From IMG/VR virus record IMGVR_UViG_3300012165_000089: a stretch of 25,209 bases of DNA, one strand, 5' to 3'. The position numbers and the translations under genes were made by a program. Positions 6,230 to 21,101 of the stretch are shown piece by piece. Origin of the DNA: a virus. Its lineage: Duplodnaviria > Heunggongvirae > Uroviricota > Caudoviricetes. Each line of letters starts with the position of its first letter. The first letter of the stretch is position 1. A model generated the notes under the pieces. That model had not been told where the DNA came from. It made no database searches and worked only from the letters and a program-made list of their open reading frames with translations.

Positions 6230-6288
6230 GTGTAGTATCATCAAAACACATAATTGGATTGAATCCAAAAAAAGAAATAGGAGACAAG

Positions 6289-8259
6289 ATGATGATTGAA
6301 AGAATGAAGGAATTAAGAAGGTTGTTAAAAGAAGCGTCTGAAGCTTATTACAACGAAAGCGGAGAAATTATGAGTAACAAAGAGTACGACGATTTGTATG
6401 ATGAGCTTCGTTCTTTGGAGGCTCAGCATGGAGCAGCACCGGATAGCCCAACTGTGCAAATTGGAGCACCGGTAAGAGGTGGTTTAGCGAAGGAGAAACA
6501 CGAAAAACCGGCTTTGTCGTTAGATAAAACAAAAAGCATTAAAGACCTGGAGGACTGGTTAGGGAATGAAAAGAGCGGCGTTCTATCATGGAAGCTGGAC
6601 GGCTTAACCATTGTAGCTACATACAATCACGGACATCTGGAAAAAGTAGTAACGCGTGGAGATGGCATTATCGGAGAAAATATTACGAAGAATGCATTAA
6701 ACTTTCAGGGGCTGCCAGAAACGATTCCGATGCTCCCGTTTGATGGCAAATTAGTGATTCGAGCTGAAGCAGTAATGTCATATGAGGAATTCGAAAGAAT
6801 CAATGATACATTGCCAGTTGATGCAGAACCGTATAAAAACCCTCGCAATCTTGCTGCCGGCACCGTGCGGATGCTGAATGGTATTGGCGACCGGATCGTT
6901 GAAACTTATGCTTTTGAAATGGTAGACATGGAAAATGGGAAACCGGCCTCTGTAGTGGATCAGTTTGCTCAACTGGCCAAATACGGAATTCAGGTCGTGG
7001 ATTATCGAGTGGTAAAAAAAGCCACACTGAAATCTGCAATTGAAGATCTGGAACGTGCCATTCCTGAGAATGCCTTTCCAAGCGATGGCTTGGTATTGAC
7101 ATATGAAGATTCTGTCTATGCCGAAAACCTTGGCGTTACCGGCAAGTACCCGCGCGGATCCATTGCCTTTAAATGGCAAGACGAAGAGTTTAAAACTATT
7201 TTGCGAGAAATTGAGTGGTCCTCGTCCGCAACCGGTCTATTAAATCCAGTAGCGGTATTTGATCCGGTTGAAATTGAGGGAACGACCGTATCGAGGGCAT
7301 CTGTACATAATGTGTCATACGCAGAGAATCTGAAATTGGGATACGGCGATACTATTGAAGTGTACAAGGCAAACAAAATCATTCCCCAGCTGTCGGCGAA
7401 CTTAACTCAAAGCAATACTATGAATGTTCCTGCGGTCTGCCCGGCATGTGGTGGTGAAACAACGATTCATAGTCGGATTACCAAGGAAAGAGAAGTTCGA
7501 ACCTTGGTTTGCGTGAATCCTGAATGCGTAGCAAAACACATGGGGCGGTTCCAGCGGTTTGTCTGCCGTGATGCCATGAATATTGTTGGAATCTCAGGCA
7601 AAACACTAAAAAGATTTGTCGATAAGGGGTTCCTGCGTTCCTTGATGGATATTTACCGCTTAGAAGAACATCGAGAAGAAATCGAAAGCATGGAAGGTTT
7701 CGGTGAAAAGTCTGCGGATAACATTTTTGCTGCAATCGAAGAATCAAGAACGGTAGAACCATGGAGATTCCTGTATGCGATGAATATTCCAAATGTTGGC
7801 CGGGATGCATCAAAAAAGATTATTCGTTTCAGTGGTGGTACGTTTGAAGGATTCCTTGAAAAGCTTCGTATGGGAGAATCTTTCCAGGGGGCAGCAGACG
7901 TAGGCAACGTTACCGATCAGTCAATTTACGACTGGAAACAGAAGCGTGGATACGTAGATGACATGGCTGATTTGTTGGATCTCATGTCATTTGTAGCAAA
8001 CGAAGATAACTCATCCACGGTACTGGAGGGAAAGAATATTGTAATTACCGGTTCCTTGGAAGCGTTTAAAAACAGAGAGGCCTTTATTGCGTTTGTAGAG
8101 TCTAATGGCGGAAAAGTGGTTGGTTCCGTATCAAAAAAGACAACCTATCTGGTAAATAATGATGCATTTAGTTCATCGTCCAAAAATGTAAAAGCCAGAG
8201 CATTGGGAATTCCGATTTTGAACGAATTAGAATTCAAAAATATGGTTTTAGGCGAATAA
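6289..8259 (+). CDS. ligA: NAD-dependent DNA ligase
   Basis: LSLDK, adenylation motif KLDG, TRGDG, NPRNLAAG, PRGSIAFK, OB-fold GTTVSRASVHN, Zn finger CPACG...CVNPEC, HhH region, C-terminal BRCT (GKVVGSVSKKTTYLV). Start moved to the ATG after GGAG at 6289. Confidence 0.95.
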   Translation: MMIERMKELRRLLKEASEAYYNESGEIMSNKEYDDLYDELRSLEAQHGAAPDSPTVQIGAPVRGGLAKEKHEKPALSLDKTKSIKDLEDWLGNEKSGVLSWKLDGLTIVATYNHGHLEKVVTRGDGIIGENITKNALNFQGLPETIPMLPFDGKLVIRAEAVMSYEEFERINDTLPVDAEPYKNPRNLAAGTVRMLNGIGDRIVETYAFEMVDMENGKPASVVDQFAQLAKYGIQVVDYRVVKKATLKSAIEDLERAIPENAFPSDGLVLTYEDSVYAENLGVTGKYPRGSIAFKWQDEEFKTILREIEWSSSATGLLNPVAVFDPVEIEGTTVSRASVHNVSYAENLKLGYGDTIEVYKANKIIPQLSANLTQSNTMNVPAVCPACGGETTIHSRITKEREVRTLVCVNPECVAKHMGRFQRFVCRDAMNIVGISGKTLKRFVDKGFLRSLMDIYRLEEHREEIESMEGFGEKSADNIFAAIEESRTVEPWRFLYAMNIPNVGRDASKKIIRFSGGTFEGFLEKLRMGESFQGAADVGNVTDQSIYDWKQKRGYVDDMADLLDLMSFVANEDNSSTVLEGKNIVITGSLEAFKNREAFIAFVESNGGKVVGSVSKKTTYLVNNDAFSSSSKNVKARALGIPILNELEFKNMVLGE

Positions 8260-8297
8260 TACTATTGAAATATAATTTTCTTTGTGAGAAATCATTT

Positions 8298-8325
8298 AAA
8301 AAGAGACCTAATAAGTCTCTTTTTT
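8298..8325 (+). terminator. Rho-independent terminator after ligA
   Basis: AAAAAGAGAC-ctaataa-GTCTCTTTTT; possibly bidirectional. Confidence 0.8.
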
Positions 8326-8453
8326 AGTTCAGACCATCTTGTGTTATCTGATCATGGACAGTCGGTTTTCCATCGTTTTCGATTCTTATGCTCATTGATT
8401 AATTCTTATCAGTAGTTATTTGAAATAAAGTTCTTTTAAAAAGATAAAAATTC

Positions 8454-8504
8454 AATATCCGCAGTGATTTAAAAATTGTTGCCTGTTTACAAACTCGATA
8501 TAAT
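8454..8504 (+). promoter_or_regulatory. AATATCCGCA copy 2 plus SigA promoter at the head of the small-gene array
   Basis: Motif 8454-8463, -35 TTGTTG 8476-8481, 17-bp spacer, -10 TATAAT 8499-8504. Confidence 0.65.
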
Positions 8505-8538
8505 GGTTGTATTAAACTTAAGAAACGGAGGAGTGGCT

Positions 8539-9063
8539 TTGAGAACGGAACGATATTACCAAGAAAAGGCTCAAAATATATTTATTAAAATTATGCTCAG
8601 AGCATTGATGCGTAGAGTACATGAGCTCTCTAAATGAATATGGGATGCGCAACAAGTACAGAGGTTGCCGAGATTATATGAAAGGTGGTGTGCTTTGAAG
8701 AAGCCAACGGCAAGAAAAGAACGCTTAGAATTTATTGAGAAGAAAAAAGGAAAGCGAGGGATGGATTTTTTCCTTTATATGACGGATAGGGAAGTTAAGA
8801 ATTATTTTGATTTATTATATCCGTCTATTAAGGACAAACCGGATGCGACAGCTGCGGATGATACCGTTCAATGTTTACGATGTGGATATGATGTAGAACA
8901 TCATCTCGAATGTGCTTGCGGTGTAGATAGATGTGTTTTCACTGAAGAAGAGTGGAAAGATGATATTGAAGATGGTAGTTTTTCGGAAATGAAAAGACTG
9001 GACAAAGATTTTATTAAAAATGGTTTTCATGTACCAGATTGTGTTAAAGAGCGGAACAATTGA
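8539..9063 (+). pseudogene. Hypothetical Cys-containing protein with an in-frame TGA at codon 33
   Basis: RBS GGAGGAG 8527-8533 precedes TTG 8539. The frame runs MRTERYYQ...HELSK-TGA(8635-8637)-IWDAQQVQR into the 8665..9063 ORF, whose TTG has no RBS. Confidence 0.5.
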
Positions 9064-9069
9064 TTTTTA

Positions 9070-9321
9070 ATGAATGAAGGACGTGATGATATAAACAAAA
9101 CAAGAAGAAAGCAATTAGATGAAGTTATTTCCAAAATCAATGCGGTCGAGGATGAACTTGAAAGCATCCTGAGTGATGAGGAAGAATATCGGGATAATAT
9201 ACCTGAAAATCTTCAAGGTTCAGAGCGGTATGAAATGGCTGATAATGCCTGTTCAGAAATGCAAAATGCACTTAATTCGCTTGATGAAGCTGTTTCAAGC
9301 ATTGAAGAGGTGCGACAATAA
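9070..9321 (+). CDS. Helical hypothetical protein of a phage/ICE-associated type
   Basis: NKTRRKQL...EEEYRDNIPENLQGSERYE pattern; acidic coiled coil. Confidence 0.75.
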   Translation: MNEGRDDINKTRRKQLDEVISKINAVEDELESILSDEEEYRDNIPENLQGSERYEMADNACSEMQNALNSLDEAVSSIEEVRQ

Positions 9322-9430
9322 CAAACTAGCTTCAAATTTTAAGGAGAAAAAGATAGTTGAAAAGCTGAATAGTGATGAACAAATAAAGTATTTCACGGTG
9401 TGAGAAAAGCCCGAAGCGGAGGTAAGAAGA

Positions 9431-9724
9431 ATGCTGGTAATTTTGAAAAATTATAACCGTGTTGTTAATTTAAATTCATTTGATGGAATAAAGCTTTGTG
9501 AAGATCCTTATGATAAAAATAAAATTTCAGTAGTTGCCTATCGTGATATGGGAAGATTTTATATGATGATTAGTGGCAGTTCAAGGGGGGACTTGAACTT
9601 TAATAATGGTTACCAAAGATTATGTAGCTATCCTGCTTGTGAGAAAGAAAATGCTCAAGCAATGTATGATGAAATTTTATCCTCATGGATGGATGGGGAT
9701 AAGAGTTTTATTATTGTAAATTGA
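9431..9724 (+). CDS. Hypothetical protein
   Basis: RBS GGAGG; stop lies inside a junction-motif copy (9717). Confidence 0.7.
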   Translation: MLVILKNYNRVVNLNSFDGIKLCEDPYDKNKISVVAYRDMGRFYMMISGSSRGDLNFNNGYQRLCSYPACEKENAQAMYDEILSSWMDGDKSFIIVN

Positions 9725-9784
9725 AATAAAGAACGAAATTAGAGACAAGAATCAAAAGCTTCAGGTTTTTAATAGGAGATAAGC

Positions 9785-11419
9785 ATGAGTAATAAAAAGC
9801 AAGATAATACGAAGTTATTAAGCATGGTTTGGCGCGGTTACAATAATAAATTGAGCCAAATTATAAACCGCTACATAATAGTGCTAATATCCATTTTCCC
9901 AATTTGGACTACAAATCAGTATTTTCACCTTTTAAGGGATAGATATCAATTCTTTTGGATTGCTACATGTATGGTAACGGTCTCTTTCTTTTTGATAACC
10001 GGATGGTACTTATTTCGTTATCTAAAAGAACGAAAATATTTAGGATTGCGATTCGGTGATGAATCAGTAGCATATCCATGGAAATATTTTTGCCAGTGGA
10101 TAAATCGATTATCTATTACCGATATTTTTCTTTTTTCATTTCTGTTTGTCCTCGTGGTGTCAACGATGTTGTCACAGTGGCCAAGAGAATCATTCTGGGG
10201 AAGCGCCGGACGTCTACAGGGATTATTTCTATGGTTTTGGTATGCTTGCGCATTCTTTTTTATAAGCAGATACGCCACTTCATGGAAAATGCATATGAGA
10301 CTCATTGTAGTTATGGGGATGGGACTTTCGATTTGGGGAGTCTTAGATTATATGAATTTAGATCCCTTTCATTGGTTAGTTGCCGTAAAAGAAGGACAGC
10401 GTGGAATGTTCATGTCATCATTCGGAAATATAAACACCTACACTGCAATGATGGGCATTTACATGGCAATATCTGCCATGTTATTCTCTCGCAGTGTCAA
10501 GTGCGGGGAGCGATTGTGGGCCGCGATTGCATTGATAGCCTTCTTCTTTAATGTCATTGCTTCAATCACCGGACAATCCGATAACGCAGCCTTGGGAATG
10601 ATGATATTATTTTATTTTCTTCCATTCTTTATTTGGAATGACGGCAGAGACATTATGTCGTACTTAATCCTTATCGAAACAGCAATAACAGGTTTTGGCT
10701 TTGTTTATATTATTACCAGCTTATTTCCAAATCCATATATAGGATTAGAAAGTGGATTGCTTTTAAAACTATGTAAGCAAAATTTATTGTGGATACCTTT
10801 TTTCGTGGTTGGTATCCTGATCTTTATAGTTTCGAGACATCGCCAAAATGACACAAGGCTAATTCCTTGGCTTAGGGGTTTTTGGGGAATCGTGGGAATT
10901 GTATGCACACTGATAATTATGATAGTACTATGGGATGTTAATCACGGAGGAAATCGCGAATGGTATCAGCCATATAAGCAATGGTTATACTTTTCCGATT
11001 CATGGGGAACGTATCGTGGATGTTGTTGGAGGTTAGGAATTGAGCACTTCCGGAATTTTAATTGGATAAACAAACTGTTTGGCTCCGGCCTGGAAACGTA
11101 CGGAATTATTGTAAAGCAGGCAAATTATCAGGAAATGGTTGATATTTGCGGTCAAATATATGATTCACCCCATAACGAACCGTTGCAATACCTGTTTACA
11201 ACCGGAATTTCAGGTTTTATCTGCTATTATGGATTTTTATTTTCCGGAATTCTTAAAGCATTGCGGATAAAAGAAATGGATTGTTTTGAACAAAAAGCTG
11301 CTGCATTAACGGTTTTAGTTTACGTTGGAATTTCCATTGTAAATATATCTGTCCCGATTGTTACGCCGTATACTATTTTAATGACCGCTTGCCTAAACGG
11401 AAGACGTTGTGAGTTATAA
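9785..11419 (+). CDS. O-antigen ligase family (Wzy_C-like) polytopic membrane protein
   Basis: About 12 TM segments; motifs GRLQGL, SSFGNINT, GTYRG..W, LFGSGLETYG and PHNEPLQYLFTTG. Confidence 0.8.
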   Translation: MSNKKQDNTKLLSMVWRGYNNKLSQIINRYIIVLISIFPIWTTNQYFHLLRDRYQFFWIATCMVTVSFFLITGWYLFRYLKERKYLGLRFGDESVAYPWKYFCQWINRLSITDIFLFSFLFVLVVSTMLSQWPRESFWGSAGRLQGLFLWFWYACAFFFISRYATSWKMHMRLIVVMGMGLSIWGVLDYMNLDPFHWLVAVKEGQRGMFMSSFGNINTYTAMMGIYMAISAMLFSRSVKCGERLWAAIALIAFFFNVIASITGQSDNAALGMMILFYFLPFFIWNDGRDIMSYLILIETAITGFGFVYIITSLFPNPYIGLESGLLLKLCKQNLLWIPFFVVGILIFIVSRHRQNDTRLIPWLRGFWGIVGIVCTLIIMIVLWDVNHGGNREWYQPYKQWLYFSDSWGTYRGCCWRLGIEHFRNFNWINKLFGSGLETYGIIVKQANYQEMVDICGQIYDSPHNEPLQYLFTTGISGFICYYGFLFSGILKALRIKEMDCFEQKAAALTVLVYVGISIVNISVPIVTPYTILMTACLNGRRCEL

Positions 11420-11554
11420 GTATTATAAGTTCAGATTTACAATTTTGATCACTGGACTTTTTATGAAAAATAAAGTTAAATCAAAAGCTACTTTCAAAAT
11501 AAACTTCTTTCGTCATAATTATGCTGATTAAAAAAAGGCAAAGGAGTAATCTAT

Positions 11555-11986
11555 ATGAAAAAACATTATGATACTAAAATTGGGAGAATCATTGAAAAGG
11601 GTTTTGATTCCAGAAGTGAGGCTGCTTTATTTAATTACATCATGTCGAACGGTATGGAAGTTATTAAGAAAATGTCTGATGATGATATTCGTAAAAACCT
11701 GGTTGATTACGGCGAAAAAGCTATTATTGGCATGAAATACCAAGAAGCCTTGATGAAAACGGCCGTACAAATTTGCAACGAATGTAGCGTAACGGAACTT
11801 ATGGAATATATTCGTTGTTACTTGCCGTTTGAGCCGCAGGTTCGCGAAATGACTCTGTATAAAGAAGACTTCGAAGACTCCGCCGCAGATGGTGGTTGGA
11901 TAAATGTTATTGATTCACTTAAACTAGATATGGAAGAGGTGGGAAATACAATTCAGCTTTGGACCATCATTCCTAACGAAACCTAA
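11555..11986 (+). CDS. Hypothetical protein
   Basis: RBS AAAGGAG; stop begins a junction-motif copy. Confidence 0.75.
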   Translation: MKKHYDTKIGRIIEKGFDSRSEAALFNYIMSNGMEVIKKMSDDDIRKNLVDYGEKAIIGMKYQEALMKTAVQICNECSVTELMEYIRCYLPFEPQVREMTLYKEDFEDSAADGGWINVIDSLKLDMEEVGNTIQLWTIIPNET

Positions 11987-12051
11987 AATAAAGTTAGAAT
12001 TGCCGTGACTATTGAAGAAATATTTAACGACAATTAACGAAAGGAAAGAAA

Positions 12052-12321
12052 ATGAAAAAGGAAATACAAAAACACATTAAAATACTAGAAAAAATGCGTA
12101 TGGAAACGCATGATACTGATAAGCGACATGCGTTAAAGGCAGCCATTGAAGAGATGCAGTTAGCTATTCCGGAAAAACCAATCGATAATGGAAAACGGGA
12201 TCCTAAAATGTGTCCTAATTGTGAAGAATATTTAACACAACCACTGGGAACTGGAATATATATTGACGTGGCAGAAATGATTTCATGTCCGGCATGCCGA
12301 CAGTTATTAGATATGGATTAG
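12052..12321 (+). CDS. Phage-like Zn-ribbon hypothetical protein
   Basis: CPNC...CPAC pair; RBS GAAAGGA. Confidence 0.75.
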   Translation: MKKEIQKHIKILEKMRMETHDTDKRHALKAAIEEMQLAIPEKPIDNGKRDPKMCPNCEEYLTQPLGTGIYIDVAEMISCPACRQLLDMD

Positions 12322-12388
12322 CAAAGTTATATGACGTTGTTGCATGTAATACATCCATTATATTAAAGTTTAACGAAGGAGACGCAAT

Positions 12389-12754
12389 ATGAGATTGATT
12401 GATGCAGATGCATTTAAACAGCAAGTAGCAGCAATGGCGATACAAAATGGGTCAAGTACCGCAGCGGATAAAGCCAAGTTGATGATGGATTTAATTGATG
12501 GACAGCCGACAAGGGAAATTACAAAAAGACAATTAAAAGACCTAGAAAAAATTAAGCAAGAAAATGAAATTAAAGCGTTATGGCTGGAATTTGGTGACGT
12601 TTTAATGGATCCAGAGACAGAAGAGCTGGAATGTACGTGGCATATTTTCCCAGCAGGAACGCATAGGGAAGAGGTGTGGCATTGGTTCGAAGATACATAC
12701 GGCATATCTGTCACTGATTTGCTATATGCCATTGATGATTTTCATTTGAAATAA
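12389..12754 (+). CDS. Phage-like hypothetical protein
   Basis: N-terminal MRLIDADAFK (common start of small phage ORFs); C-terminal WHIFPAGTHREEVWHWFE; RBS AAGGAG. Confidence 0.75.
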   Translation: MRLIDADAFKQQVAAMAIQNGSSTAADKAKLMMDLIDGQPTREITKRQLKDLEKIKQENEIKALWLEFGDVLMDPETEELECTWHIFPAGTHREEVWHWFEDTYGISVTDLLYAIDDFHLK

Positions 12755-12883
12755 AATTATTCCAAGATAACTCGTGTACCTAAAGTATAGTACCCGAAGT
12801 AGCATGGGCTGAAAATGGAATAATCGAGCTGTTTGTAAGTTCTATTGGAATTAGTTAAATTCATTTTCAAGAAGAGGAGAAAT

Positions 12884-13153
12884 ATGGAAAGGAAATTTAA
12901 AATCGAATGTATCATATGTGATGTTCCCAGTAATAACATACTTTTCACAATTGAAGAGTCAGGAGTGGAATTATCTGAACTTATGTTGAAAAAGGACTTC
13001 AAGAGTAGTATTATGAACGCATTAAAAGAAAAAAGAATTTCTGGTGAGTTATATGTTGAAATGTTGGTAACTAAAAACGACAGTTACTATGATGATGATG
13101 AGTTCAATATCATTGTAGACGAAGAATTTACAGAATGTCAGTTTATTTATTAA
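12884..13153 (+). CDS. Acidic hypothetical protein
   Basis: ATG 12884 behind GAGGAG is preferred to the TTG at 12845. Confidence 0.7.
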   Translation: MERKFKIECIICDVPSNNILFTIEESGVELSELMLKKDFKSSIMNALKEKRISGELYVEMLVTKNDSYYDDDEFNIIVDEEFTECQFIY

Positions 13154-13188
13154 ATTAATTTTTATCGGCATAGCCGGGAAAGGAAAGT

Positions 13189-13650
13189 ATGAAGAGGAAG
13201 GAAGTAATTGTAAATAAAATCACTGGCAACTTGAATACAAAGAATATAGCTTTGGTCGATGGGGGCTTTCTTGCCAGTTATGGCGGTATGGTTGCCATTG
13301 GGTATCGTGGAGGCAATCGGGACTATATGCTATCCGTTACAGCAGAAGACATGGAGAAGTTTCTCCATGCTGGTGGCAATGTGGCACTTACCTTGGAAGA
13401 GTTACGGATGATGGAAGGCGAACCAGTATGGATAGAGGTGTTGGACAGACCAGATTTAAGCAGATGGCATTTTGTTATTCGAACGGAATCCCTTGGGTTA
13501 ATAGCCAAGGACGGCTTGGGGCAATACGAACCCCATTCCTGGAACGAGGAAAGACCGACATTTTCGGGTTGCTATTTTGATATCGAAAAAGGCCATAAAT
13601 ATGGCGTTAACTGGTTGGCATATCGACACAGGGTAAGCCGAGAGAATTAA
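13189..13650 (+). CDS. Phage-like hypothetical protein
   Basis: RBS GAAAGGA; LTLEELRMMEGEPVWIE...WLAYRH pattern. Confidence 0.75.
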   Translation: MKRKEVIVNKITGNLNTKNIALVDGGFLASYGGMVAIGYRGGNRDYMLSVTAEDMEKFLHAGGNVALTLEELRMMEGEPVWIEVLDRPDLSRWHFVIRTESLGLIAKDGLGQYEPHSWNEERPTFSGCYFDIEKGHKYGVNWLAYRHRVSREN

Positions 13651-13687
13651 AGTTTAGCGGCTTATGCCGGGAAAGAGAAAAAAGAGA

Positions 13688-13954
13688 ATGATGGAATTAG
13701 ATTTATTTAAACTTCTGACCAGCGACTTAGTAGATGAACTAGGATGGATTAATGATCATCAGTTTTGCGTATGGGTAAACTATAATGCTCTGGCAGAGTT
13801 TATGAATAAATTGCTTGAGATAACCGGAGCAGACGCTTTTATTGCCGGAGAAGTAAATGCGAATCTACAAGGAGATGGGATTTGCTTAGTGATGCAGGAT
13901 GTGATGGATGTAAATCTGATAGGGATATTTCCGCCGTCACAATATTTGCACTAA
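13688..13954 (+). CDS. Hypothetical protein
   Basis: Start uncertain (13664 or 13688); stop begins a perfect junction motif. Confidence 0.65.
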   Translation: MMELDLFKLLTSDLVDELGWINDHQFCVWVNYNALAEFMNKLLEITGADAFIAGEVNANLQGDGICLVMQDVMDVNLIGIFPPSQYLH

Positions 13955-13980
13955 ATTGAAGTTTAATGGAGGAAATACAG

Positions 13981-14133
13981 ATGGCGAACGGTAATTGTCC
14001 GTGGGATATAAGAAATAACTGCGAAGCATGCGGATATGAAAGATTCATCAAAGAAAAGAATTGGTATGAGTGTTTTCATCCAGAAAGTATTAACTGCAAA
14101 CGAGAACGGGAGGAAACGGAAAAGAACAAGTAA
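13981..14133 (+). CDS. Small Cys-rich protein, 50 aa (absent from ORF track)
   Basis: RBS GGAGG at good spacing; MANGNCPWDIRNNCEACGYERFIKEKNWYECFHPESINCKREREETEKNK; bounded by junction motifs at 13952 and 14131. Confidence 0.7.
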   Translation: MANGNCPWDIRNNCEACGYERFIKEKNWYECFHPESINCKREREETEKNK

Positions 14134-14176
14134 ATTAACATTATCCGACGTTAACTGGAGAAAGGAGATTGTGTAC

Positions 14177-14383
14177 ATGAGGGTGCCTAAAAATATTGAA
14201 AAACTACTTAGTCAGCGGATAGACGCTGCTATACAGGTGCAAAGTGCTGATTATAAATTGGCGGTGTGGCTTGAAAAGAATGGCATTGAGGTGGAAGAAT
14301 ACGACATTTTAGGCGGTGTCGAAATTTACGGGAATCCAGACTCAAGTGCTGAAAGAATTAGACAGGCTATTCTAAACAGGTAA
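14177..14383 (+). CDS. Hypothetical protein, 68 aa
   Basis: ATG 14177 behind AAAGGAG; the 14036 start in the track overlaps the small Cys-rich gene. Confidence 0.7.
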   Translation: MRVPKNIEKLLSQRIDAAIQVQSADYKLAVWLEKNGIEVEEYDILGGVEIYGNPDSSAERIRQAILNR

Positions 14384-14403
14384 ATTAAAGTTGGAGGTAG
14401 AGA

Positions 14404-14655
14404 ATGACAAAAGGGAATAAAGATATCAGAACATCATGTGAAAAGTATCAATATGTAATCATAGTAGAACGTGATGATGTGCAGAAATATATAGCAAAAG
14501 GCTATGGGAAAAAGCTTACATTTGATTTTACTGTACTACTAAACAAAGCTACTAAATTTGACAAGGTTGAATTAGCTGAAAGATTTATTGAGAAGATGGA
14601 CATTCAAAATGTTATTAAAATAGCAATGGTGAAAAATGAATTGTCTTTACAATAA
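14404..14655 (+). CDS. Hypothetical protein
   Basis: RBS GGAGG; flanked by junction motifs. Confidence 0.7.
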   Translation: MTKGNKDIRTSCEKYQYVIIVERDDVQKYIAKGYGKKLTFDFTVLLNKATKFDKVELAERFIEKMDIQNVIKIAMVKNELSLQ

Positions 14656-14693
14656 ATTAATTTTTAAGTTGGATTTAAAAGGAGAAAAAAATC

Positions 14694-15074
14694 ATGAGTA
14701 AATACTATAACGAATTTAGATTAGGTCTTTCTGGCCGCGAATATGAAATATTAGAAACATATTCGGATGGAATAAAAAAAATTCAATTTCCCACAATGGG
14801 CGGAGAAGTAATTTTTGCCCACCCAAAAGATTTGGATGAATCTTACAAAGAAGCACATGAAACCAGATTGGAAGACGAACGGCAACGAATCATAAGGGAA
14901 AGAAACGGATTTCCTGACATTGAAGAATTAGGAAAGAGAACTGAGAAAGCAATTGAAAAAAAACTGAAAGAACTGGATGAAAAGTATGATAAAGAATTCG
15001 ATGAATGGCTCGATAAGCGCGGATTATCGCTAGTAGATGGCTTGGTGGTTAAGAAGCGCAATCCAGTAAATTAA
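14694..15074 (+). CDS. Charged hypothetical protein
   Basis: RBS AAAGGAG; flanked by junction motifs. Confidence 0.75.
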   Translation: MSKYYNEFRLGLSGREYEILETYSDGIKKIQFPTMGGEVIFAHPKDLDESYKEAHETRLEDERQRIIRERNGFPDIEELGKRTEKAIEKKLKELDEKYDKEFDEWLDKRGLSLVDGLVVKKRNPVN

Positions 15075-15095
15075 AGTTTAACGGAGGTATAATGG

Positions 15096-15272
15096 ATGCC
15101 TTATATTAACGAACAGGGAAATGTGTTGTTGGGAAACAAGTGCTATGGATGTAAGTTTTGCTATTGGGATAGTGAAAGGCATGAATATTCATGCGAAGCC
15201 TTTGGCTGTTATGAATATTCAAATTACTCTGAATTTGTGCTAAATCATCCAGCAAAACCGAGAAAGAATTAA
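15096..15272 (+). CDS. Small Cys-rich protein, 58 aa (absent from ORF track)
   Basis: RBS GGAGG; MPYINEQGNVLLGNKCYGCKFCYWDSERHEYSCEAFGCYEYSNYSEFVLNHPAKPRKN. Confidence 0.65.
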   Translation: MPYINEQGNVLLGNKCYGCKFCYWDSERHEYSCEAFGCYEYSNYSEFVLNHPAKPRKN

Positions 15273-15370
15273 AATATGGTACATAAAAGGTTGTGGATAT
15301 AAAATGCCTTCTTGGTTATTCCATGATTTTAATGCATTGATTGTCTGGAATAGTGATAACTTCATATAGG

Positions 15371-15398
15371 AGAAGGGCTAATATAGCTCTTCTTTTTT
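15371..15398 (+). terminator. Rho-independent terminator closing the first part of the array
   Basis: AGAAGGGCTA-ata-TAGCTCTTCT plus a T run. Confidence 0.75.
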
Positions 15399-15463
15399 AT
15401 CACAATGTATACACATCCATAATTATATTATAAAAAATATAGAAATTAGAGAAGGAGATTAAT

Positions 15464-15790
15464 ATGAATAAAATTATTTTAATGGGGCGCTTAACCAGAG
15501 ATCCGGAATTGCGATATTCTCAGGGCGAACGTGCAATGGCTATTGCAAGATATACACTTGCTGTGGATCGTAGAGGTCGTCAAAATGCGGATACAACAGT
15601 TGATTACATTAATATCGTTGCGTTTGATAAGGTTGGCGAGTTTGCCGAAAAACACTTCCGGCAAGGACTGCGAGTTTTAGTATCTGGACGCCTTCAGATT
15701 GGTAGTTATACCAATAAAGAGGGACAAAAGGTAACTACTGCGGAAGTCGTGGTTGATGATCAGGAATTTGCAGATAGCAAACAGACTTAA
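15464..15790 (+). CDS. ssb: Single-stranded DNA-binding protein (OB fold only, no acidic tail)
   Basis: MNKIILMGRLTRDPELRY...DYINIVAF...KHFRQG..VLVSGRLQ; ends EFADSKQT. Confidence 0.9.
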   Translation: MNKIILMGRLTRDPELRYSQGERAMAIARYTLAVDRRGRQNADTTVDYINIVAFDKVGEFAEKHFRQGLRVLVSGRLQIGSYTNKEGQKVTTAEVVVDDQEFADSKQT

Positions 15791-15911
15791 TTTCACAAAG
15801 GAGACATTGCAAGATGTCTCTTTTTCAATAATCCTTAAAAATACCTTTCCGTTATCATAATCATAATGAACTGATTTTATAGGTATAGAGAAAATTCCAG
15901 AAAGGAAAAAT

Positions 15912-16079
15912 ATGAAATTTGAATTATTGTATTTACTGGCAAGGATAAGAGGAATATTTTCAGACAACCATAAAGGAAGTCTGGTCTTCGGTAAACCAGA
16001 TAAAGATATTGTAAAGCAAATGTATTACCGAGGTAGTTTTGTTCCGTACAGAATCGACAATCTTGTTACATACAGATAA
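15912..16079 (+). CDS. Small hypothetical protein, 55 aa (absent from ORF track)
   Basis: RBS GAAAGGA; MKFELLYLLARIRGIFSDNHKGSLVFGKPDKDIVKQMYYRGSFVPYRIDNLVTYR; stop lies in a degenerate junction motif. Confidence 0.55.
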   Translation: MKFELLYLLARIRGIFSDNHKGSLVFGKPDKDIVKQMYYRGSFVPYRIDNLVTYR

Positions 16080-16111
16080 TTGGTTTTTAAAGACCAGGAA
16101 GGTGGAAATAT

Positions 16112-16390
16112 ATGAAAAAGGTGAAATATGATTCTGGACGACCTATTATGAGATTGGAGACTGGTGATGAAGCTGTTATCAGAGTAACTCATTTCCCTGC
16201 TTCAGTTGTTGATGAAAAAGACAAAGAAAAATACAAAGATGTACCGGCGGGAAGATATAAAGCTATTTGTACAGGTCATTTGCGATTGGAATGCCAAGAG
16301 CACCCTGTGCTTAGTGGCAAATATAATTATTGGCGAGGAGATAAGTGGGGATGCTCAGAAGGAATTTATGCAGATGAGCCAGGTAAGTAA
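16112..16390 (+). CDS. Hypothetical protein
   Basis: RBS GGAAGGTGG; stop begins junction motif 16388. Confidence 0.7.
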   Translation: MKKVKYDSGRPIMRLETGDEAVIRVTHFPASVVDEKDKEKYKDVPAGRYKAICTGHLRLECQEHPVLSGKYNYWRGDKWGCSEGIYADEPGK

Positions 16391-16527
16391 ATTAAAGTTC
16401 GGCTGAAAAAGAGGTGGTACAACTTATTGGTTGTGATATGAGTTCTTGTTATCTGGATGATTTAGTAGACTGAATGTCTTGAATACTTGCCGTTAGACTG
16501 GTGAATTGTTTTTAGAAAGATTTCTGG

Positions 16528-16558
16528 AAAGACAGGGAGAATTATTCCCTGTCTTTTT
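16528..16558 (+). terminator. Rho-independent terminator
   Basis: AAAGACAGGGA-gaattat-TCCCTGTCTTT plus TT. Confidence 0.8.
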
Positions 16559-16641
16559 GTGCAAAAATCAAATTATCTGATACTTTTTTAGTGGTAAATT
16601 TATAGAAATTTTTTTGATAAAATCATAAAAGGATAAAAAAT

Positions 16642-16692
16642 AATATCCGCAGTGTTTTTATTTTTTTTAATTTACAAATTAATTGATAGTAT
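16642..16692 (+). promoter_or_regulatory. AATATCCGCA copy 3 plus extended -10 promoter of hflKC
   Basis: Motif 16642-16651; TGaTAGTAT 16684-16692; no recognisable -35. Confidence 0.6.
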
Positions 16693-16718
16693 AAGAATAT
16701 AAAAATCAAGGAGGGCAC

Positions 16719-17696
16719 ATGATGTCAACAGGTGCAAAATATCAAAGGAATTATGATTCAAGTAACGAGTATATGGAAGACATTTTAAAAGCAAAGCGAT
16801 ACTTGACAATCGGATGCATTGTATTGTTTTTGGCAATAACATTGCTTAAAAGCTTTTATACCGTGAATTCGCAGGAATGCGTGGTATTGCTTACATTTGG
16901 TAAGGCGCAGGAAGTAATGGATCCCGGGGCACATTTTAAAATTCCGTATATCCAGAAAGTAAAACGTGTGACGAAAGAGATTTTAGGGATGAATATAGGT
17001 TATTCGTCCAATAACGAGAGCATTCTTAAGGAATCAATGATGATCACCAGAGACTTCAACATTGTCAATGTCGATTTTTATATTGAATATCGCGTGACTG
17101 ATCCGGTAAAGGCATTGTATCGCAGTGATTGTGTCGATGATGTTTTAAAAAACCTCGCACAATCTTACATTCGCGATACTGTTGGTCTATATCAGATTGA
17201 TGAGGTATTGACTTCCGGTAAAAATGAAATTCAGGCGGCAGTGAAGGAAAAATTGGTGAATCGGCTGGCGAAAGATGATTTAGGGATTCAGGTGCTAAAC
17301 GTGACAATTCAGGATAGTGAGTTGCCAACGAACGATGTGTCTACTGCGTTTAAAAATGTGGAGAATGCTAAACAGGAAAAAGATAAAAAATTAAATGAAG
17401 CTGCTATGTATGAAAATGAGCAGTTACCCGCTGCCAGGACAAAAGCGGATGCTATTTTAAAAGATGCGGCCGCATATAAAGCGGAACGCATTAATGAAGC
17501 AACCGGTCAGGTGGTTCGTTATAATGAAATGTATGAGGAATACGTAAAATTTCCCCAAATCACCAAGGAAAGAATGTTCTTCGAAACAATCGAATCATTG
17601 TTGCCAAACAAGAAGGTTATTATCGATAACGGAGACGGCACCCAGAAACTATTGCCTCTGGACTCGTTAGTAACGACTTCGGAAAAGCAAAATTAA
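16719..17696 (+). CDS. hflK: HflK, SPFH-domain FtsH modulator
   Basis: N-terminal TM; VLLTFGK, PG.HFKIPYIQ, MITRDFNIVNV, P..A..AF..V..A..E, ERMFFETIE motifs; paired with hflC. Confidence 0.88.
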   Translation: MMSTGAKYQRNYDSSNEYMEDILKAKRYLTIGCIVLFLAITLLKSFYTVNSQECVVLLTFGKAQEVMDPGAHFKIPYIQKVKRVTKEILGMNIGYSSNNESILKESMMITRDFNIVNVDFYIEYRVTDPVKALYRSDCVDDVLKNLAQSYIRDTVGLYQIDEVLTSGKNEIQAAVKEKLVNRLAKDDLGIQVLNVTIQDSELPTNDVSTAFKNVENAKQEKDKKLNEAAMYENEQLPAARTKADAILKDAAAYKAERINEATGQVVRYNEMYEEYVKFPQITKERMFFETIESLLPNKKVIIDNGDGTQKLLPLDSLVTTSEKQN

Positions 17697-19415: not shown

Positions 19416-20882
19416 ATGAATATTCAAAAGAAATATGAAATGGAAGATCTATATATCAATCTTTACGGAAGAGATCCGCTTTATGTTTACGAAAGAGAAA
19501 TTAAGGGTCTCAATAATATTTCTTACGAAAAGTATTTAAAGGAGTCGATATATTCCTTTAAACAAGCAGGTTCCGTAAATCTTGTTGTAATCGACAATGA
19601 TGATGCAACAGAAGAGACTGAATTAAAACTTCCAGTAATCATAAATGACGGGAGTAAAGCTTCGATGGGTCTAAAAGATAACGTTGCAGACCGTATTGGA
19701 CGACGCATCAATAAGAGTGCTAAGCTGCTATATGAAAAAATAAGAAAAGAGTCTGTTGAAGAATGGAAAAATGATATCAATGCGTTCTATTGTTGGTTTG
19801 ATGCGGAATTATTAAAGTCAACCGGAACTGTTTTTATTCGAATCAACCTTAATAAGCCTTATGGCCCGCAAAACTGCATGCTGACAGATAGTATTAAAAT
19901 CTTAACAGAACCATTAAATGAGAAATTCCATACAAATTTGGATACGCTCTATCGAAAAATGGTTATAACTCATTCAAGAAAGGAATTAGCGCCAGAGTGG
20001 GGATCCACTCATAGCTTCATTCATTGGATTCAAAATCACCAAGAACAAATTCCGGAGCGACCAGTTTTGATTAGAATCAACCGAAATAAGCCTTTCGGCC
20101 CCGATAACTGTAAGTTTAAAAGAGTAGAAGACGTAAGAAGAAATCGTAAAAACTACACGGATGAGGAACAACAGTTAATCGATACTGTAATTGAAATCGG
20201 AAATAGTTATGGAACGGATCCGGTCGCTAAATATGAAAACATTTGCAATTGCGGCGATGTGGATTCAAAAAAATGGACTCTAAAGAAATATCTTAAATGG
20301 GTTATCAAGCAGAATGAAAATAATCATTTTGCGCCTTGCTTAAATCGTCTGAACATCAATAAACCTTATTCCCCAAACAACTGCTATTTCAGTTGGCGAT
20401 CAAGAGGTAAAAGGACACATGGTATGTCTAATACTAAACTGTATCGTAAATATCTCTATTTTACGCGGTATTATCGGGAACATCTGGAAACTAAAATTAC
20501 ATTTGAAGAATTCATGGAAATTGCCTTGAAAGAAAAGGATTATCAGCTAAATTCTCGTATGAAAATAAATTACCAAGATCCCATCACCATGGATAGTGTT
20601 GATTTTATTCAAGATGATAGTGATATAAGTGATATTAATCGCATTTGTGATATTTACCGCACAGAAATAAGAGCCGGTAAAGATGGCTTTGATGGCTTGA
20701 TGAAATTTATGGAATGGACCATTCGACAAGGATATACATCATGGATGGATTTTCAAAAAATTGGCAAAGGCGATTATTCACCAGAAACTTGTGTTTGGGA
20801 TATCTTCACAGCCGATGCTTACATCCGCTCCAAAGGAAGACGCATTACAACAACATTTGAAAATAAAGTCAATGACTCATGA
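19416..20882 (+). CDS. Protein with five tandem degenerate HNH-like (homing-endonuclease-type) repeats; last 4 codons and stop come from the inserted element
   Basis: Repeats RINLNKPYGPQNC, RINRNKPFGPDNC, RLNINKPYSPNNC, KINYQDPITMDSV and KIGKGDYSPETC, four of them preceded by a W/F..F..W-like segment; also THGMSNTKLY. Confidence 0.7.
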   Translation: MNIQKKYEMEDLYINLYGRDPLYVYEREIKGLNNISYEKYLKESIYSFKQAGSVNLVVIDNDDATEETELKLPVIINDGSKASMGLKDNVADRIGRRINKSAKLLYEKIRKESVEEWKNDINAFYCWFDAELLKSTGTVFIRINLNKPYGPQNCMLTDSIKILTEPLNEKFHTNLDTLYRKMVITHSRKELAPEWGSTHSFIHWIQNHQEQIPERPVLIRINRNKPFGPDNCKFKRVEDVRRNRKNYTDEEQQLIDTVIEIGNSYGTDPVAKYENICNCGDVDSKKWTLKKYLKWVIKQNENNHFAPCLNRLNINKPYSPNNCYFSWRSRGKRTHGMSNTKLYRKYLYFTRYYREHLETKITFEEFMEIALKEKDYQLNSRMKINYQDPITMDSVDFIQDDSDISDINRICDIYRTEIRAGKDGFDGLMKFMEWTIRQGYTSWMDFQKIGKGDYSPETCVWDIFTADAYIRSKGRRITTTFENKVNDS

Positions 20883-21101
20883 CTAAAGTCACGAGCTCGT
20901 AAAAGCTCGACATTGATTAGCCTAAGCCTTATCTGACTACGTTATTTTGGTCGATGCACCATAGGGTACTTCTCAAGCTCTATGGCAACTGTCGTTTGTG
21001 GTTAAAAGTCCTGTGGAGTAGGGACGGTGCTGCAAACATGACAAGCCTTTCCAACTTTGGCGATGAGGAAGTAACTACAACTTGATTGTAGGGCTTATAG
21101 C
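20868..21101 (+). ncRNA. Omega RNA (HEARO-like) scaffold; the guide would be the 5' flank
   Basis: Recognisable blocks GTCAAT...ATTGAT-TAGCCTAAG, GACTACGTT, stem CCATAGGG/CTCTATGG, long-range pair TACTTCTCA (20967-20975) with TGAGGAAGTA (21064-21073), TTGGCGA and GGCTTATAGC. The 3' end is approximate. Confidence 0.8.

Follow-up and report, generated by a model that had tools for sequence, protein, structure and literature searches.

Single small genes are exchange units whose borders lie in a short, AT-rich word of DNA, (T)AAATTAA-nn-TTT(A), which is repeated in one orientation at the junctions of small accessory genes in a conjugative element and in unrelated phages. The element was met in IMG/VR record IMGVR_UViG_3300012165_000089, catalogued under Caudoviricetes. 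The window (the whole stretch of DNA analysed, 25,209 nucleotides, one strand) makes up the final 25 kb of a contig of 85-89 kb, which comes from a "fungus metagenome" enrichment sample series, and its source is a conjugative element. Recent gene transfer between phage and conjugative element has occurred word to word, at 95% identity. What is new is the word itself, the fact that it carries stops and precedes the Shine-Dalgarno (SD) sequence, and its occurrence both in a conjugative element and in unrelated phages, with recent transfer between the two. The explanation we favour, to which we would give about an even chance of being right, is that the word is a portable junction/leader module acting on the transcript and doubling as short homology for gene exchange. 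In the following, W stands for the window, while L001, L003-L010, L069 and L162-L168 are contig labels of the present analysis, and the 35 kb of the element referred to below are the 25-kb window plus 10 kb upstream, out of a contig of about 89 kb.

A word at the junctions of small genes

The word is 12-14 bases long and is present in 11 plus-strand copies between 11984 and 16401. In a matrix scan of the 35 kb at a threshold of at least 10 bits, matches are found solely at 11984-16388, all on the plus strand; the tra, ligase, SPFH and adhesin parts have none, and neither do the 10 kb preceding the window. A first-pass annotation, made by a model from the sequence alone, had listed ten copies, all facing the same way and missing from the junctions of the tra genes, ligA, hflKC and the adhesin; all ten are where it placed them, and the scan bears out both the orientation and the absences. 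The copies, the hairpin next to one of them and the gene block that holds most of them are as follows.

11555-16390, plus strand: small-gene block of about 15 co-oriented genes of 55-153 amino acids, nearly all family-less, including an SSB gene with its own promoter and terminator
8508-8521, plus strand: weak copy (8.8 bits) in the leader, just past the presumed -10 box and followed by an SD
9056-9069, plus strand: weak copy (2 mismatches), TGA stop at positions 6-8, no SD after it, ATG at 9070 immediately next
11984-11997, plus strand: weak copy (10.8 bits) overlapping the stop of a 143-aa gene, SD 41 nt downstream
12359-12372, plus strand: junction word (16.0 bits), upstream stop 38 nt earlier, SD of the 121-aa gene 2 nt later
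12856-12869, plus strand: degenerate junction word (11.0 bits), about 100 nt past the upstream stop, SD of the 89-aa gene 3 nt later
13151-13164, plus strand: junction word of the form TAAATTAATTTTTA, its first three bases the stop codon; left border of a phage-shared unit
13165-13177, plus strand: small GC hairpin (centroid, -5.3 kcal/mol) from the word to the SD of the 153-aa gene
13643-13656, plus strand: junction word, stop codon at positions 6-8; right border of the phage-shared unit, with a hairpin (13658-13669) next
13952-13965, plus strand: junction word, at whose final base likeness to L162 (76%) stops
14131-14144, plus strand: weaker junction word (10.3 bits) at the stop of a 55-aa gene
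14381-14394, plus strand: junction word continuous with an SD (GGAGG)
14653-14666, plus strand: junction word, left border of the unit shared with L001
15067-15080, plus strand: perfect junction word, stop codon at positions 6-8, SD 2 nt on
16388-16401, plus strand: junction word at the stop of a 92-aa gene, followed by an SD-like run and frames of only 4-11 codons

The annotation had described the motif as a dyad, TAAA-N6-TTTA, marking gene junctions. The word is real and clustered, while the bare dyad is marginally enriched (6 occurrences vs 2.39 expected, with 4 of 100 shuffles reaching 6), and the fuller pattern given at that time, with up to 2 mismatches allowed, occurs 16 times vs 9.6 over both strands. 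The clustering is strong, with nine single-strand matches to that pattern (again with up to 2 mismatches) falling within 4.15 kb, a count for which 1000 dinucleotide shuffles give a mean of 3.1 and a maximum of 7. The copies share more than the arms, five of them having exact ATTAAAGTT and three exact GTAAATTAAAGT, and when motifs were sought de novo in the 50 nt preceding 103 starts (window plus related contigs), (G)TAAATTAA-nn-TTT(A) ranked first, above the SD. The information content sits in AAATTAA..TTT, the middle TT and AA and the TTT run being strongest. As the outer T and A are weak, and as RNA folding predicts the word to be unpaired, the dyad is not the organising feature, and the word is an asymmetric one. 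A search for the exact word in the literature matched only unrelated primers and constructs.

The anatomy of the junctions was read from 32 motif-bearing examples in the window and related contigs. Junction length is only 13-40 nt. The upstream stop codon begins at word position 1 in 12 and at position 6 in 10 of the 30-32 junctions counted, these being the two registers already recognised in the first-pass annotation; the word provides TAA in two frames, and often also the last one or two codons of the upstream gene. At its other end it keeps close to the SD, with -3 to +6 nt between the two in 22 junctions, and the start codon follows the word at a median distance of 16.5 nt, counted from the end of the word. 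In five junctions with long spacers (W 12359, W 12856, L001 3107, L001 4304 and L009 1407) the word is kept beside the SD. Five junctions have a GC hairpin between the word and an SD of the GGAAAGGA type (W 13165, W 13658, L003 2592, L006 and L162), the stems differing in sequence and the place remaining constant. The word marks small genes, being present at 29 of 71 genes of up to 160 aa vs 3 of 32 larger ones (p = 0.001), and in the contigs scanned it was not found at phage structural genes or at the transfer genes of the element.

Through homologues of two array genes, further contigs with the word at small-gene junctions came to light, namely L001, the phage contigs L003-L008/L168, L009, L010 and L162. 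When a matrix built from nine copies of the window was applied at 12 bits to 40 kb of these contigs, the parts in common with the window having been masked, it gave 11 matches on the gene strand and 3 on the opposite strand (shuffles 1.36 +/- 1.05, maximum 5). A search with the word plus SD revealed more arrays, in L163 (six copies in 2.2 kb), L164 and L165, and the IMG/VR phage L069, with terminase, portal and capsid genes, also has a word array. Other searches returned little: a 21-mer of word plus SD had no match in IMG/VR, a 15-mer of the word mainly gave single chance matches, with an array in L069 only, and a 41-nt junction compared by BLAST with isolated phages gave just weak matches centred on the SD. 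Phages from other metagenomes, related through a PAPS reductase gene, have lower G+C (34-37%) and plain junctions without the word. Since these AT-richer relatives do without it, AT-richness does not explain the word; nor, by the indirect control of 301 genomes given below, is it a host-wide habit.

Two copies stand in settings of their own. The 130-nt spacer before the 89-aa gene contains a 117-nt stretch (12747-12863) between 26-nt imperfect inverted arms, the right one overlapping the degenerate word at 12856; a 35-nt core of this stretch (12765-12800) recurs at high depth, in several different surroundings, within the same metagenomes. The stretch, which has no match in Rfam, may be a small mobile insertion. 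Beyond the last word, the region 16402-16560 holds the SD-like run, the frames of 4-11 codons and then a terminator-like hairpin, and it is possible that this region and the word at 16388 are the scar of a lost downstream gene.

Exchange of single genes from word to word

Two segments of the window, each consisting of one gene with its leader and the next word, are shared with otherwise different contigs.

13151-13655, plus strand: exchange unit of word, hairpin, SD, 153-aa gene and next word; 94.9% DNA identity to phage contig L003/L168, nothing else in common
14651-15087, plus strand: exchange unit of word, SD, 126-aa gene and next word; 94.1% identity to L001, unrelated flanks, nothing else in common

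The L003 contig runs on into portal and Mu-F head genes, which places the first unit in a phage. The same segment is found at high depth in contigs of other runs, with loose ends exactly before 13151 and behind 13655, and a third context of the 126-aa gene, also in contigs from other runs, begins at 14679. In each unit the differing upstream genes use different TAA triplets of the same word. One more example is L162, with homologues of the 121-aa and 96-aa genes of the window and other genes in between, where likeness stops at 13965, the last base of a word.

For a wider view, 32 distinct boundaries of segments of at least 88% identity were collected among related phages. As many as 14 of them fall within -6 to +22 nt of a word, a zone that makes up 2.3% of the bases (p = 3e-11). 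About 20 boundaries are at gene junctions, and 14 of these (70%) are at motif-bearing ones, while 29% of all junctions bear the word. On the left, boundaries concentrate at -2 to +4 of the word, and on the right at +11 to +13, the pattern expected when both partners carry the word and the crossover is somewhere inside it; in L069 vs L164 the boundary is inside the word or at its edge and one partner has only half of it. Other boundaries are outlying, on the left at +12 to +21 and on the right at -4 and -1, and therefore no single crossover point fits every boundary. Still others coincide with a stop codon, with an SD or with a start codon, or fall within genes.

These observations bear on the interpretation offered by the first-pass annotation, a recombinase-driven system of gene capture with minimal sites. 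In such a scheme a dedicated site-specific recombinase, supplied in trans by an unseen part of the element, a phage or the host, would use the word as a minimal crossover site for integron-like single-gene cassettes, and, if true, phages and conjugative elements would be linked in one network of single-gene cassette exchange. The word-to-word units shared by phage and conjugative element would fit, and most boundaries are compatible with a crossover near word positions 8-11. Tyrosine recombinase genes are also present, co-directional, inside the small-gene arrays of two motif-bearing phages (L003 8054-8986 and L069 2606-3637), just before further small genes or terminase. However, these two enzymes are unrelated to each other beyond the family level, and Pfam searches recognise no recombinase in the 35 kb of the element. 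The outlying boundaries exclude one fixed crossover, and the fixed place of the word beside the SD would be needless in a recombination site. As to rearrangement, 17 contigs (several samples, one study) all have the array in the same order, at 99.8-100% identity, and no joints were seen in contigs of other runs. We thus see no positive support for this scheme and hold it to be very improbable. A separate observation on these phages is that, between L003 and L004, divergence starts right after the stop of the tyrosine recombinase gene.

The likeness to integrons is similarly divided. Integrons carry co-oriented, promoterless small genes, each followed by an attC site, often with a stop codon, and have the IntI tyrosine recombinase and attI adjoining the array; attC spans about 55-140 nt and has imperfectly inverted arms (R''-L''...L'-R'), by which it folds in single-stranded form. 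The present array is likewise co-oriented, with a repeated site after each gene that often contains the stop. In contrast to integrons, junctions are 13-40 nt long, no inverted repeats recur at them, no attC-like fold was predicted and the word is unpaired, and no IntI is encoded in the 35 kb inspected, in agreement with the first-pass annotation, which had seen neither attC hairpin nor integrase in the window. The term cassette-like used at that time thus remains apt for the exchange of single genes with borders in the word. On gain, loss and reordering of cassettes the observations point both ways: the order is the same in the 17 contigs, and yet units are shared with phages word to word, and L162 differs between two homologues.

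Known junction signals and the favoured reading

In position and distribution, the closest known match is presented by the start-associated sequences (SAS) and extended SAS (ESAS) of the Cluster K mycobacteriophages, which are 13 bp long, asymmetric and in one orientation, placed right in front of the starts of non-structural genes that belong to different families, in some cases holding the upstream stop, practically absent from the host genome, and in some copies with an added inverted repeat (Pope et al., 2011, PMC3203893). Their function is not known, translation being suspected (PMC3203893). The present word is likewise oriented (11 vs 3 matches), is located a few nucleotides before the starts of non-structural genes and is no commoner than its backwards control in 301 genomes (of the Clostridium porci family, which may not include the host of the window). 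It is not a member of SAS: the latter are GC-rich and contain the SD core in their consensus, GGGATAGGAGCCC, while the word is AU-rich, precedes a separate SD by 0-6 nt and has two TAA triplets; moreover, it recurs in unrelated phages and on a conjugative element and forms the borders of exchange units.

As regards evolutionary effect, the word comes closest to the promoter-early stem-loops (PeSL) of T4-type phages, repeats that flank small orphan genes in variable regions and recombine to shuffle single genes between related phages, with mini-circles demonstrated experimentally (Arbiol et al., 2010, PMC2839356; Comeau et al., 2014, PMC4122927). The word resembles these in its presence at the 29 of 71 small genes and at the 14 of 32 boundaries between related genomes. 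It is not one of them, as PeSL are longer and consist of a sigma-70 promoter and a terminator stem-loop, while here a word of 12-14 nt is found beside an SD; promoter-like sites in 8000-17000 number 37 vs 36.3 expected, and no terminator was found at the junctions.

A third comparison is with the stoperators of mycobacteriophage L5 and Cluster A, named in PMC3203893. Like them, the word is asymmetric and repeated, faces one way, lies in short gaps between genes and is often found at stop codons; it differs in being common to unrelated elements and tied to the SD, with no common regulator gene seen. Stoperators, as reportedly described by Brown et al. in 1997, are 13-bp asymmetric sites that occupy short intergenic spaces, all have the same orientation relative to transcription and frequently coincide with stop codons, and are said to be bound by the phage's own repressor and to be specific to the immunity group. 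By analogy, a repressor or silencing protein could bind the word as double-stranded DNA and block transcription through the accessory block. The resemblance to such sites of about 13 bp, the weak copy at the start of the operon leader (8508-8521) and the disuse of the word by host-type genomes (the Clostridium porci family) would agree with this. Against it, the same word is found in phages with unrelated integrases and morphogenesis modules as well as in a conjugative element, the spacing from word to SD is tight, and the covarying hairpins between the two point to the transcript. An operator of this type appears improbable to us.

The favoured explanation instead assigns the word to the transcript, and it does so because of the tie to the SD, the hairpins of fixed place and changing stems, the strict co-orientation of the word with the genes and the use of the word by elements without a common regulator. 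The word would be the core of a module in which stops in two frames and the unpaired, AU-rich sequence are followed by a strong SD, at times with a small GC hairpin in between, and this module would belong to a pool of small accessory genes circulating among certain gut phages (with Firmicutes-like SD usage) and the conjugative element. As a leader of the downstream gene, it may act in ribosome loading, in re-initiation after the stop or as a processing site, in the last case with the downstream product possibly shielded by the hairpin or by a bound ribosome. An RNA-level role had been the alternative named in the first-pass annotation, and it fits the position beside the SD better than the recombinase model does. 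Pairing of the word with the 3' tail of 16S rRNA and a likeness to the epsilon enhancer of T7 were both considered and dropped by reasoning, since the word has the sense of the rRNA segment, not of its complement, and is upstream of the extended SD. As to exchange, since 12-20 shared bases recur from junction to junction, homologous recombination of a general or a phage-encoded kind, rather than a dedicated enzyme, would cross over there, and single genes would be swapped word to word between elements; a short patch of identity at many junctions would thus account for both the word-to-word units and the pile-up of boundaries.

Several observations weigh against this explanation. Action on the transcript is deduced from position only. 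In three junctions (W 11984, L003 1372 and L010 581) the word is kept at the stop while the SD is 35-41 nt off, and two of these three stop-bound words, as well as the one at W 16388, still precede an SD-like run without a proper gene. The junction hairpins are individually weak (z = -0.7 to -1.5). If boundaries are compared with a null of any gene junction, where either partner may carry the word, then 14 of 20 vs about 50% expected is a borderline excess (p = 0.05). A ligase probe over species genomes found one distant relative only, in C. porci, the sole isolate with a related element, and the homologous, shorter block of that element has ordinary stop-SD-start junctions without the word. 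In 301 genomes of the C. porci family the strict 14-mer is never clustered and no commoner than the backwards control, this control being indirect, as the family may not include the host of the window. With both the family and the relative doing without it, the word is not something that the translation machinery needs in general, and its reader may be more specific.

The borderline excess also bears on another reading, by which the word is purely an expression signal at gene starts without any role in recombination, and boundaries coincide with it since selection keeps those recombinants that are broken at gene borders. Near-identical phages also break at a stop codon, an SD or a start codon without the word, and the array is stable in the 17 contigs, both of which this reading would accommodate. 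It is less at ease with the 14 boundaries in or at the edges of the word, some with a half-word partner (L069 vs L164), and with motif-bearing junctions making up 70% of junction boundaries but 29% of junctions. We consider this reading rather unlikely, and we retain the favoured one, of a leader module that doubles as short homology.

The element around the array and the meaning of the word

The window codes for PrgI, a VirB4-type ATPase, an NAD-dependent DNA ligase, a Wzy_C membrane protein, two SSB-type proteins, two SPFH proteins and an HNH-repeat protein; the 10 kb upstream encode a Dam-type methylase, a 2168-aa protein and a DnaG-type primase (L166 1-8702). The ligase is the element's own, at 6259-8259 of the window, and has a counterpart at 60% identity in the related C. 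porci element. The promoter (8476-8504) and the terminator (15371) of the array are putative and were read by eye. Three copies of AATATCCGCAGT, one at 8456-8467, another at 16640-16651 and a third, are at roughly equal distance upstream of presumed promoters. A HEARO RNA (Rfam, 106 bits) is located at 20868-21075, between the HNH-repeat open reading frame and an SSB-like gene, with no IscB-type gene adjacent; a tie between this RNA and the junction word was considered, and no likeness was seen.

The small genes themselves are for the most part nameless, with Pfam and PHROGs giving a name to almost no array protein. Rfam had no match in 11400-16700 at E up to 1, Megablast of 8400-16700 had none among plasmids and phages, and neither the 153-aa protein, compared with isolated phages, nor the 83-aa protein, compared with JGI metagenome contigs, found a match. 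The 121-aa protein (12389-12754) has as its C-terminal part, of about 55 residues, a widespread small domain without a Pfam name; 890 cluster representatives contain this domain (E up to 0.001), and the N-terminal parts joined to it are many and varied.

Functions in counter-defence and host takeover accumulate among the small accessory genes that phages and conjugative elements carry at their entry end, and, to our knowledge, little is understood of how such genes travel from one element to another. If the word serves as expression signal and place of exchange alike, then it would provide a simple rule that keeps orphan genes expressible wherever they land, and, if this is true, the word would also be a handle for finding small accessory genes in metagenomes.

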